A model generated the notes under the pieces. It worked only from the letters and a program-made list of their open reading frames with translations. It was not told the DNA's origin and made no database searches. A DNA stretch of 49,171 nucleotides from contig JBHLPH010000015.1 in NCBI GenBank assembly GCA_048939625.1, forward strand, positions 1-49,171, given 5' to 3'. Origin of the DNA: Promethearchaeota archaeon (GTDB lineage: Archaea > Asgardarchaeota > Hermodarchaeia > Hermodarchaeales > Hermodarchaeaceae). The position numbers and the translations under genes are program-made. Numbering within the stretch: position 1 is the stretch's first letter; each line of letters begins with the position of its first letter. Below, piece by piece: positions 7,067-44,979 of this stretch.

Positions 7067-7174
7067 TGGTGGGCCGGGCGTGAATTGAACACGCGACCTC
7101 CGCCGTTTCCTCGCATCCAGCCTGTTTGGGCTAAATCCTGTGAGAGCGGCGTCATACCACTAGACTACCGGCCC
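7067..7174 (-). tRNA. tRNA-Val(CAC) with one 33-nt intron, CCA encoded
   Basis: Reverse complement folds: acceptor GGGCCGG/CCGGCCC, A73, CCA; anticodon stem CCGCT/GGCGG with loop CT-CAC-AC after intron removal; T arm GCGTG-TTCAATT-CACGC. Mature length 75 nt. Intron is 7107-7139 (36/37) or 7106-7138 (37/38). Confidence 0.92.
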
Positions 7175-10653: not shown

Positions 10654-11961
10654 TCAGAGTTGTGTTGATAACTCCGGCTTGATTATTTCTCGTAAAATCA
10701 CGGACGCATAACTTCCCTTAGATAGATCGAATTGGATACGAAAGGGCGTGTCTGATTCATCCTCGAGAACAGTTATTTGCAGATTATCAGGATTAACTAG
10801 CAGTGGACGGAATGTGCCCCGAGAGCTGAAAGCAGGCAGATCTTTAAGCCGGAAGTGACTCGCGGTAATCTGCTCCGATTCCAGAACTGCGTGATATATT
10901 ACGCCCATCTCACCTTCCAACGGTACATGTTCGAAATCCATACCGATAATTGGAACAACTAATTGTCTAGTTCCATTCTTGACCTCTTGTCGTACTCTAT
11001 TCAAGTTCTCCTTTGTCACCGGGCGTACGGCATGAATCTCACCCGAGATGGGTATCGTGTAATCTCCGACGATTGGTTCCCGCAAAATGATGTTTTGGCG
11101 AGCGCGCTCACTTATGGTCAGATTGAAGAGAAAGGATTGGTAAGCATGGATGTAAAGTCGAACCAAATCTTTGGGTAATACTTTCAGACTTTCTTTGAAT
11201 TTACCCGGATGTCTGTTCAAGAAATGAGTGATGGCTCTCTCATAGGTTCCTTGAGGTGAATGCTCTCTGATGAGTGCTTTTTCATCGTCATTTTCCACGT
11301 CATCGTTGGTGTCAAGGAGAATATGAATTGCCTGCTCAAAGTTCCCCAAGACAAGCTCTTTTCCGATACGATGGGTATTGGGCTGCATTATGCCGAAACG
11401 TTGAGGTCCAAAGAAGTTGAGAACACCACCAATCTTAGCAATCTCATTCTGAATTTGACTTAAACGCTGCTTTACATCTTCAGCTGGAAGGGAGACATCT
11501 CGAACAAGTATGGTAAACCGATTACCCTTCAACGCACCGGGCACAATAGGTTTCGTCACGCGATGAGGATACAAAATCATATACTGTGGGTTATCTCGAC
11601 CAACCAAATCCTGGGGTGGTCCCCGATATGAAACGCGCTGAGATGTCACTGCACGCCGGTCCTTCATTCCAGCGTATGAAAACCGTTTGTAACTGGCACC
11701 AACCGATCTACTAAGGTGGCGAATCGCCTGAATCGAATCAATATTCCGTTTTACTAAAAAGAATGCCGTCAGTTTTCCCGATTGATCGGGAAAAGGTTGA
11801 TCTGAAACTTCTAATGGTGCAATTGAGCCATCGAGCCCAATTTCTTGAACTACAAAATCTTCAGGAGTTTTTCTCAGGCAACCTCCAGTGCCTGATGACT
11901 GTGTGGTGAACACCCGCATTCCTATTAGATTATCGTAATCTCGGGCTTGCACATAATCCAC
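10654..11961 (-). CDS. truD: tRNA pseudouridine(13) synthase TruD/Pus7
   Basis: PEDFVVQE, AGMKDRRAVTSQ, GNRFTI, NFFGPQRFG, HAYQSFLFN, GSYASVILRE. Confidence 0.95.
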   Translation of the reverse strand: MDYVQARDYDNLIGMRVFTTQSSGTGGCLRKTPEDFVVQEIGLDGSIAPLEVSDQPFPDQSGKLTAFFLVKRNIDSIQAIRHLSRSVGASYKRFSYAGMKDRRAVTSQRVSYRGPPQDLVGRDNPQYMILYPHRVTKPIVPGALKGNRFTILVRDVSLPAEDVKQRLSQIQNEIAKIGGVLNFFGPQRFGIMQPNTHRIGKELVLGNFEQAIHILLDTNDDVENDDEKALIREHSPQGTYERAITHFLNRHPGKFKESLKVLPKDLVRLYIHAYQSFLFNLTISERARQNIILREPIVGDYTIPISGEIHAVRPVTKENLNRVRQEVKNGTRQLVVPIIGMDFEHVPLEGEMGVIYHAVLESEQITASHFRLKDLPAFSSRGTFRPLLVNPDNLQITVLEDESDTPFRIQFDLSKGSYASVILREIIKPELSTQL

Positions 11962-40313: not shown

Positions 40314-40332
40314 TGAAAACAAACGTTTAAAA
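40314..40332 (+). promoter_or_regulatory. Putative BRE/TATA promoter of the tRNA-Leu transcript
   Basis: A-rich segment followed by TTTAAAA (40326-40332); implies a TSS near 40352-40358. Confidence 0.55.
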
Positions 40333-40407
40333 CACACAGCAGTTATTCATTGCATCAAGCCCTGTGCGGGGGACCCTTCCGAAGGGGTCTTTGCCGCCAT
40401 ACCGGTG

Positions 40408-40594
40408 GCGGGGGTATCTACGCTTGTAGACCCCACAGCCAAGCCTGGTTAACGGCGCAGGAGTCACCTGCTGCGGTAGGCTGATGGCGTTACTCAAGAT
40501 CTAACCAGGTTCATGAGACATCCTGTCCGGCAGCGGTTCGAGGGTTCGAAGGAGCACCGCACTGCGAGCTCCGAAATTCCCTCCCCCCGCACCA
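40408..40594 (+). tRNA. tRNA-Leu(CAA) with four BHB introns (8/9, 30/31, 37/38, 59/60), CCA encoded
   Basis: Exons 40408-40415, 40437-40461, 40492-40498, 40520-40550, 40578-40594 join to GCGGGGGTAGCCAAGCCTGGTTAACGGCGCAGGACTCAAGATCCTGTCCGGCAGCGGTTCGAGGGTTCGAATCCCTCCCCCCGCACCA (88 nt). Acceptor, anticodon and T stems pair perfectly, with a long variable arm and A73. Each junction sits in a BHB motif. Confidence 0.93.
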
Positions 40595-40670
40595 CCTTTC
40601 CATCGCTACCTTTTTGACTGCGATTTCCCTAGCTTCTATAACGGATTTCCATCTCCACGGGGCTATATGC

Positions 40671-43831: not shown

Positions 43832-44979
43832 CGCAGAAAGCCGTGCTAACGGGGGAAATGTTCACACAAGGCGACATCGCTGCTGCAGAAGGGGCGCTTG
43901 CTGCTGGCTGCCGCTTTTTTGGCGGGTATCCAATCACACCTGCCACCGAAATCGCTGAACGGATGGCTTATCGACTTCCACGCATCGGTGGTCGATATAT
44001 CCAGATGGAAGACGAAATTGCATCCTGCACAGCGGTCTTAGGAGCATCCTATGCTGGCGTTAAAGCCATGACTGCTACTTCGGGACCGGGTGTCAGCTTG
44101 ATGAACGAGACCATTGGTTTGGCAGTAATGACCGAAACACCCATGGTCTTAGTCAATGTTATGCGGGGAGGGCCTTCAACCGGTCAACCCACCGAAGCCA
44201 GTCAAAGCGACATCATGCAAGCCAAATGGGGAAGCCACGGCGATTACGAAATCATCGCCCTAATCCCCTCGTCCGTTCAAGAAATGTTTGACCTCACTAT
44301 CAAAGCTTTCAACTTATCCGAACAATTTCGTGTTCCAACTTTCGTTCTTGCAGATGAAATCATTGGACATATGCGTGAACGCTTAGTAATTCCACCCGAG
44401 GACGAAATCGAAATTGTGAATCGCAAAAAACCCACTGTGCCCCCGGAAGAATATCTGCCTTTCAAACCTGATGAAGATCTAGTACCCCCTATGGCAACAT
44501 TCGGTGATGGCTATCATTTCTACGCCACAGGGCTCACTCACGACGAACGCGGATATCCCGTAATGAATGATGAAGCCCAGCTCGCTCTGGTTCCACGACT
44601 ATGTGACAAGATTAGGAAAAACACCGATAAAATCACCCAAGCCGAGAGCACCGAAACTGAAGATGCTGAAACACTCGTCATTGCATATGGAGGCGAAGCT
44701 CGCACAGCAATGCGCGCCATCAAAGATGCACGCGCCAACGGCATGAAAATCGGTCTTTTCCGGCCCATCACGGTCTGGCCTTTTCCCAAGGAACAATTGA
44801 AAGAAGCCGCAGCCAATGCCCAAAATGTGATCGTTGCAGAACTCAATTACGGTCAATTAGTGGGCGAAGTAGAACGGGTCATCAGGAATGAAGTTCCGGT
44901 TCATTTGATTCCACGCGTATGTGGCAGCCCCCATACCCCCCAAGAACTTATGAAAGAAATTAGGAGGCGTATCAACTGA
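43828..44979 (+). CDS. korA: 2-oxoacid (2-oxoglutarate-type):ferredoxin oxidoreductase alpha subunit
   Basis: GYPITPATE, QMEDEIAS, TATSGPG, RGGPSTGQPT, WGSHGD. Confidence 0.94.
   Translation: MTQKAVLTGEMFTQGDIAAAEGALAAGCRFFGGYPITPATEIAERMAYRLPRIGGRYIQMEDEIASCTAVLGASYAGVKAMTATSGPGVSLMNETIGLAVMTETPMVLVNVMRGGPSTGQPTEASQSDIMQAKWGSHGDYEIIALIPSSVQEMFDLTIKAFNLSEQFRVPTFVLADEIIGHMRERLVIPPEDEIEIVNRKKPTVPPEEYLPFKPDEDLVPPMATFGDGYHFYATGLTHDERGYPVMNDEAQLALVPRLCDKIRKNTDKITQAESTETEDAETLVIAYGGEARTAMRAIKDARANGMKIGLFRPITVWPFPKEQLKEAAANAQNVIVAELNYGQLVGEVERVIRNEVPVHLIPRVCGSPHTPQELMKEIRRRIN

Follow-up and report, generated by a model that had tools for sequence, protein, structure and literature searches.

A conserved leader copy of the acceptor strand precedes a four-intron tRNA-Leu(CAA) gene in a Hermodarchaeia-type Asgard archaeon

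Introduction

Heavily interrupted tRNA genes have been described in Asgard archaea. In Atabeyarchaeia and Freyarchaeia, Valentin-Alvarado et al. 2024 (PMC11291895) reported that 92-95% of tRNA genes are interrupted by introns and that more than half hold several of them, and their supplementary table has four intron columns. In its focal families, a preprint of October 2026 (10.64898/2026.10.13.758758) counted 2.2 intervening sequences for each tRNA gene, with up to five in one gene, and gave 30% as the share missed by tRNAscan-SE. How Asgard tRNA introns are gained and maintained is a question that this census does not answer. Multi-intron tRNA genes are also known from Thermoproteales, where up to three introns are found according to Sugahara 2008, as cited in PMC11291895 and PMC4090602. 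Finally, split and permuted tRNA genes, such as those of Nanoarchaeum equitans and Cyanidioschyzon merolae (PMC4090602), have conserved sequence outside the tRNA that shapes the precursor for the splicing endonuclease.

Here we describe a tRNA-Leu(CAA) gene that resembles the published Asgard genes in having several short BHB-type introns, some at non-canonical positions (D arm, T loop), in a type of gene that annotators miss and that may hold up to four or five introns. The genome as a whole fits this heavily interrupted type, with many tRNA genes carrying two or more introns at non-canonical positions. It differs from the published cases in its lineage, a Hermodarchaeia-type family that is not named in the main text of the preprint, and in an intron load of about 1.2 per gene, compared with 2.2 in the preprint's focal families. 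A sequence-only reading of this DNA had raised the possibility that a four-intron archaeal or Asgard tRNA was undescribed, but PMC11291895 and 10.64898/2026.10.13.758758 already report such genes, and having four introns does not by itself make an Asgard tRNA gene novel. With the Thermoproteales genes, as these are presented in the cited work, the locus shares BHB introns at non-canonical positions and a likely dependence on a broad-specificity alpha/beta EndA, although it belongs to another phylum and the cited work describes at most three introns per gene.

The least ordinary feature of the locus is a second copy of the 5' acceptor strand in the leader, which we call copy A and which the sequence-only reading had not mentioned. 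The parallel with split and permuted genes lies in the conserved outside sequence. In those genes, however, leader and trailer build the BHB themselves and are cut by EndA, whereas the role that we propose for copy A is to hold the 3' acceptor strand, without being cleaved by EndA. The review PMC4090602 discusses leaders only for split and permuted tRNA genes, none of them copying the acceptor strand, and the searchable text of PMC11291895 and of the preprint contains no mention of leaders, RNase P or a duplicated acceptor strand. A leader copy tied to introns at position 8/9 is conserved and was not found described in the literature searched; its function is something we infer.

Structure of the locus

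The window, that is, the whole 49,171-nt stretch of DNA that was analyzed, contains at 40408-40594 (+) what is very probably a functional tRNA-Leu(CAA) gene with four BHB introns, the only such gene detectable in this Hermodarchaeia-type Asgard archaeon. Its parts and flanking elements are listed below, with intron positions in Sprinzl numbering.

40321-40332 (+): BRE/TATA-like putative promoter, AAACGTTTAAAA; motif kept upstream in orthologues
40366-40372 (+): copy A, GCGGGGG; second copy of the acceptor 5' strand, in the leader
40373-40407 (+): structured leader spacer, 35 nt; hairpins at about 40373-40388 and about 40393-40409 (RNAalifold)
40408-40415 (+): exon 1 (copy B), tRNA positions 1-8, GCGGGGGT; from the ARAGORN product and the cloverleaf finder
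40416-40436 (+): intron 1, 21 nt, position 8/9, full hBHBh' motif
40437-40461 (+): exon 2, positions 9-30; D arm and 5' part of the anticodon stem
40462-40491 (+): intron 2, 30 nt, position 30/31, relaxed BHB
40492-40498 (+): exon 3, micro-exon ACTCAAG, 7 nt, positions 31-37; anticodon CAA
40499-40519 (+): intron 3, 21 nt, canonical position 37/38
40520-40550 (+): exon 4, positions 38-59; 3' strand of the anticodon stem, variable arm, T stem and most of the T loop
40551-40577 (+): intron 4, 27 nt, position 59/60, full hBHBh' motif
40578-40594 (+): exon 5, positions 60-76, with A73 and CCA encoded at its end
40611-40615 (+): T5 run, likely terminator, inside the conserved trailer; CCTTTTTGACT kept in orthologues

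Removing the four introns joins exons of 8, 25, 7, 31 and 17 nt into an 88-nt product that ARAGORN calls as a class II tRNA-Leu(caa), in agreement with the sequence-only reading, which had proposed the same four cuts. Across exons 1 and 2 the predicted spliced 5' end reads GCGGGGGU-AGCC. The acceptor stem (GCGGGGG/CCCCCGC) is a perfect 7 bp and is followed by A73 and an encoded CCA; CCA is encoded in all inspected tRNA genes of the genome. The product folds into a cloverleaf with acceptor, D, anticodon and T arms, retains the conserved U8, A14, G18G19, U33 and T-loop UUCRA, and has the leucine anticodon CAA together with a 14-nt variable arm that contains a 3-bp stem. It was also accepted as a tRNA by a cloverleaf finder written for this analysis, which permits BHB jumps and takes a T-arm/CCA anchor as its only input. 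The top-scoring solution of this finder at the locus was the identical four-intron structure.

Without splicing, ARAGORN detected no tRNA at the locus, either in the window or in the raw stretch and with its intron option included. Rfam at gathering score did not recover the locus in the window, where its sole match was another tRNA at 7070-7174 (-), and the locus was not among the whole-genome matches of the Rfam tRNA model at E<=10. The earlier expectation that standard scanners would miss the gene was therefore borne out with both tools. From what is known of archaeal promoters, the element at 40321-40332 is a putative promoter; other tRNA genes of the genome have a TTTAAA-type box 33-35 nt upstream of tRNA position 1. 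The T5 run at 40611-40615 presumably acts as terminator. Conservation of the 3' trailer in orthologues (40595-40625, CATCG(C/T)TACCTTTTTGACT) reaches well past this T-run.

Geometry of the four introns

All four introns have the geometry recognized by the archaeal splicing endonuclease. Their central helix joins four exon bases, which end two before the 5' cut, to four intron bases, which end two before the 3' cut, and it is flanked by two 3-nt bulges on opposite strands. All four central pairs form in introns 1, 3 and 4, and three of the four in intron 2. In intron 1 the central helix (GGGG/CCCC) joins acceptor bases G3-G6 to CCCC and is paired in 100% of alignment cells, and two pairs of the inner helix (TCTAC/GTAGA) show compensating changes. 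The central helix of intron 2 (CGCA/GGCG) has three pairs and an A.G mismatch. This mismatch is unpaired in 16/16 sequences and so, on the evidence of the alignment, is part of a conserved relaxed motif and not an error. The inner helix of intron 2 spans 9 bp, four of which show compensating changes. Intron 3 has the central helix CTCA/TGAG with the anticodon stem as its outer helix, and intron 4 has TTCG/CGAA, paired in 100% of cells, with the T stem as its outer helix. Compensating changes also occur in the inner helix of intron 4.

We shuffled each intron with its boundaries fixed (20000 trials) and scored the central plus inner helix. The observed helices were reached in fractions of 0.0004, 0.005, 0.001 and 0.00035 of the shuffles for introns 1-4, respectively. 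On an alignment of 13 sequences, the BHB helices were 94.8% paired, as compared with 30-47% when the 3' partners were slid, and eight pairs had changed on both sides. The corresponding values on an alignment of 16 sequences were 91.8% and 38-50%, with 10 compensating pairs. Geometry, shuffling and orthologue comparison together confirm the four BHB introns, with the helices and bulges that had been proposed for them from the letters alone.

A further helix may link intron 3 to the D loop. The intron 3 loop TAACCAGG (40502-40509) is complementary to the D-loop exon segment CCTGGTTA (40444-40451). This pairing is 98% intact in genus 1, where two pairs have compensating changes (C-G to A-U and U-A to C-G), and is weaker in genus 2, where the region is poorly aligned or paired. 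It is a predicted long-range contact that would exist only in the precursor. Separately, the intron 4 motif CTGCGAG (40562-40568) is near-invariant in genus 1 and is not accounted for by the inner helix; its CTGCG is complementary to CGCAG of exon 2 at the 5' splice site of intron 2.

Conservation and transcripts

The adjoining ORF of 1015 aa has relatives in MAGs labelled Hermodarchaeota or Promethearchaeota, consistent with the Asgard origin that had been suspected. The loci of 12 of these relatives have a syntenic tRNA with exons that are 92-100% identical and introns that are clearly divergent. Three of the four exon blocks are 100% identical in every one of the 12 loci, and exon 2 ranges from 92 to 100% identity across orthologues. 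The gene occurs in 19/19 species-level genomes of the family, which makes up the whole class in the genome collection, and all four introns are kept in four genomes of a second genus. A BLAST search of the gene against 301 Asgard genomes outside the family returned only short exon matches. The micro-exon ACTCAAG is invariant in 16/16 sequences even though it is flanked by two variable introns, and in one species of genus 2 a compensating change (CCG/CGG to CAG/CTG) keeps the stem of the variable arm paired. One species (L010/L065) is missing 63 nt, corresponding to the spacer, copy B and intron 1. Judged by these comparisons, the gene is real and conserved.

RNA runs were examined as assembled contigs only. 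A wetland metatranscriptome contains a 225-nt contig that covers 40367-40591 with all four introns retained, and a sediment metatranscriptome from a second study contains another contig starting at 40367. These starts fit a processed end at copy A but could equally be assembly breaks where variable sequence gives way to conserved sequence. The same sediment run also yielded a contig that opens with the last 11 letters of exon 4, GAGGGTTCGAA, and passes straight on to 40578 and beyond. This is the exact predicted junction of exons 4 and 5, with only 11 nt on one side, and the contig runs about 100 nt beyond the tRNA 3' end. It is either a spliced, 3'-unprocessed transcript or DNA of an intron-less relative, the latter being less likely because intron 4 is kept in all 19 species. 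Among the RNA-library contigs there was no mature tRNA read and no junction for introns 1-3.

The lack of mature RNA among these contigs would also fit a decaying tRNA pseudogene riddled with insertions, with UUG read by another tRNA; the tRNA-Leu(UAA) of relatives could do so by wobble. We consider such decay extremely unlikely. Exons are near-identical across 19 species, with a compensating change in the variable arm, and BHB geometry is kept at all eight splice sites. Promoter and terminator are conserved as well, and RNA libraries show the locus to be transcribed or, at the least, contain it.

tRNA genes and processing enzymes of the genome

The assembly comprises 2.31 Mb in 83 contigs and is 87.6% complete. 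The Rfam tRNA model gave 18 tRNA matches. Using the cloverleaf finder, followed by ARAGORN on the spliced products, we reconstructed 33 tRNAs, with the low-scoring tail (scores <=25, long "introns") serving as the only guide to false positives. The reconstructed genes are distributed as follows.

0 introns: 9 of 33 genes
1 intron: 14 of 33 genes
2 introns: 6 of 33 genes
3 introns: 2 of 33 genes
4 introns: 2 of 33 genes

This amounts to 40 introns, or 1.2 per gene, with 24 genes interrupted and 10 carrying at least two introns. Four more tRNA loci were seen by eye, and the real number of tRNA genes is at least 33 and probably 37. About half of the genome's tRNA genes are thus missed by the Rfam model, which implies that tRNA counts of such Asgard MAGs are badly underestimated. 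Two loci were left unsolved by the finder (C62, about 11386-11554, and C12, about 44747-44892), the first of which is probably a tRNA-Lys(UUU) gene with at least two introns. No other CAA anticodon occurs among the 33 reconstructed tRNAs, and BLAST of the genome found no second copy of the gene. The search for another Leu(CAA) gene, which had been suggested as a check on the original reading, therefore came out in its favor.

The second gene with four introns is tRNA-Pro(CGG) (G000 C36:31766-31966; L083/L134), whose D loop is interrupted twice and whose anticodon loop and T loop are each interrupted once. Its structure was confirmed by 14 orthologues, three of which are missing the first D-loop intron. 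Comparison with these intron-less orthologues places the finder's boundaries for that intron about 2 nt off.

Two ORFs of the EndA family, of 186 and 198 aa, both have PF01974 and PF02778. By eye, the 186-aa ORF (G000 C38:8416-8976) keeps the Tyr/His/Lys catalytic residues and the 198-aa ORF is without the catalytic His. The presence of two paralogues, one of them without this residue, suggests an alpha/beta-type enzyme. Alpha/beta-type EndA is known for broad specificity and, as (alpha-beta)2, is a heterotetramer built from a catalytic and a structural subunit. The genome also has an RtcB gene and an RNase P RNA.

Several other tRNA genes of the genome have features of their own. At least five tRNA genes lie on the short contig C46 (about 4.5 kb), namely those for Met (three introns), Thr, Arg(CCU), Tyr and Asp, and the non-catalytic EndA-like gene lies on the same contig (2473-3069). 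The tRNA-Val(CAC) gene at 7070-7174 (-) of the window is interrupted once, by an intron of 33 nt in the anticodon loop. Placing the cut one base 5' of 37/38, which leaves the product unchanged, gives this intron a canonical BHB (TCTC/GAGG). An intron-less tRNA-Arg(UCU) on the minus strand of C9 (Rfam match 114637-114710) has an apparent C33 in place of the near-universal U (loop CCTCTAA).

A second copy of the acceptor strand

Copy A starts 42 nt 5' of exon 1 and matches the acceptor strand perfectly (7/7). None of its bases differs among the aligned Leu(CAA) orthologues (16/16), in contrast to the freely varying 12 nt on its 5' side. It lies 33 nt past the TATA-like box, where tRNA position 1 falls in the one species without intron 1, and its start is at the usual distance from the box to the tRNA start in other genes of the genome. 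In that same species, copy A was lost along with intron 1. The spacer hairpins between copy A and exon 1 differ by species or genus yet stay self-complementary (e.g., CCCTTCCGAAGGG, CCTGTACATAGG and CCCGTTTACGGG), with 80-87% of cells paired on alignment A3, a value limited by alignment quality.

The same module precedes a second leucine tRNA. In ten relatives (L072-L081), tRNA-Leu(UAA) has the copy, a structured spacer of about 35 nt, exon 1 and an 8/9 intron that is homologous to intron 1, with no other intron. No tRNA-Leu(UAA) gene was found in this assembly.

An analogous arrangement occurs in tRNA-His(GUG) of the same genome (G000 C38:75063-75217; L082/L084), which is the only other gene of the genome with an 8/9 intron. 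As in Leu(CAA), the central helix of this intron uses acceptor bases 3-6, and a near-copy of the acceptor strand lies upstream. The His gene differs in having three introns and a copy that matches in 6/7 bases and lies only 13 nt upstream. The arrangement is kept in 13 species, and the copy variants GCTGGGA and GCCGGGG still pair with the His 3' strand. Overall, an upstream acceptor copy is present in 2/2 genes with an 8/9 intron versus 1/31 others in the genome (Fisher p = 0.0057, by hand, from small numbers). In other Asgard families, six tRNAs were solved in 11 loci, and none of the six has an 8/9 intron.

The position of copy A raises the question of which copy is the true exon 1. If it were copy A (40366-40372/40373), the first intron would be a single piece of about 63 nt that holds copy B, the mature tRNA would have A8, and RNase P would act at its usual site. 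Copy A is at the canonical promoter distance, RNA contigs start there, and its G3-G6 could pair with the same intron CCCC. However, copy A is followed by A or C and in no case by the near-universal U8, and an invariant T (U8) stands after copy B. We reject copy A as the true exon 1 because of this base at position 8. Moreover, copy A is damaged (GCGGGGC) in one orthologue of Leu(UAA), and the inner helix beside copy B covaries while a BHB built on copy A has no inner helix. In view of these observations, an exon at copy A is highly unlikely. A fifth intron between copies A and B was also considered and rejected, as none of the eight same-product registers (0/8; 42 nt, by hand) gave a complementary central helix.

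Possible role of the leader copy

With copy B as exon 1, processing could proceed as follows. Transcription from the TATA box at 40321-40332 would put about 50 nt of leader before the tRNA, an EndA of two subunits (alpha/beta-type) would cut the eight bulges, RtcB would ligate the five exons, and RNase P would generate the 5' end at 40408. The central helix of intron 1, which uses acceptor bases 3-6, would be expected to lose out to the 7-bp acceptor stem. Copy A (40366-40372) would pair with the 3' acceptor strand in the precursor and leave exon 1 free for the splicing motif. After intron removal, exon 1 would replace copy A on the 3' strand, and RNase P would take off the leader. The odds that copy A holds the 3' acceptor strand so that exon 1 can form the intron-1 motif seem to us about even. 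The broader proposal is that 8/9 introns are spliceable only thanks to a stand-in copy in the leader, a precursor-only decoy that co-evolves with the intron and is lost with it. We put this forward tentatively, with chances that we judge to fall slightly short of even.

Predicted folds are partly in line with such a role. For both Leu families, RNAalifold pairs copy A with the 3' acceptor strand and exon 1 bases 3-6 with the intron. In single-sequence folds, copy A was paired to the 3' strand with a probability of 0.94 when the leader was included, and exon 1 was paired to it with a probability of 0.90 without the leader. Forcing the intron-1 BHB cost 2.0 kcal/mol with the leader versus 4.6 kcal/mol without, a modest gain of 2.6 kcal/mol, and the cost of the motif was smaller with the leader in 11/12 species. 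When copy A was replaced in silico, its place on the 3' strand was taken by other G-runs of the leader and not by exon 1, and the probability of the splicing motif was almost unchanged. Copy A is therefore not singled out by folding alone. Within the Leu genes, neither copy A nor the 3' strand varies, and these genes consequently offer no covariation for the pairing of the two.

These last results would suit an alternative in which copy A is a neutral relic of the origin of intron 1, left, for instance, by a duplication or by an insertion that carried a copy of the exon. It would then have no role in processing, and RNase P would remove the leader. A historical origin fits the placement of copy A exactly at the ancestral tRNA start, its pairing is without covariation support, and changing it in silico had little effect on the splicing motif. 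Nevertheless, all 7/7 bases are invariant over two genera and two paralogues while flanking leader bases vary. A similar copy precedes the unrelated tRNA-His, where variants still pair with the 3' strand. A neutral relic also sits poorly with the loss of copy A together with intron 1 and with the occurrence of copies in 2/2 genes with an 8/9 intron versus 1/31 others. We regard neutrality as a real possibility, albeit a rather doubtful one.

If copy A is instead a decoy for the 3' acceptor strand, 5' maturation would take two steps, with an initial end at the decoy and, after splicing, a second one at the true exon. How an intron that competes with the acceptor stem gets spliced, and in which order RNase P and EndA act, are questions on which the leader copy bears. 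Lost with intron 1 in one species, and matched by a homologous module in Leu(UAA) and an analogous one in His, it offers a testable case of sequence outside the tRNA body changing along with an intron.

The paralogous genes have some further features. In Leu(UAA), the leader segment GACTAAGC is complementary to the D-loop exon segment GCTTGGTC, with one compensating pair, and in genus 2 the full CCA of this tRNA is not encoded. The tRNA-His gene has A73, and T rather than G at position -1, in all 13 species. This arrangement is eukaryote-like, and G-1 would need post-transcriptional addition.
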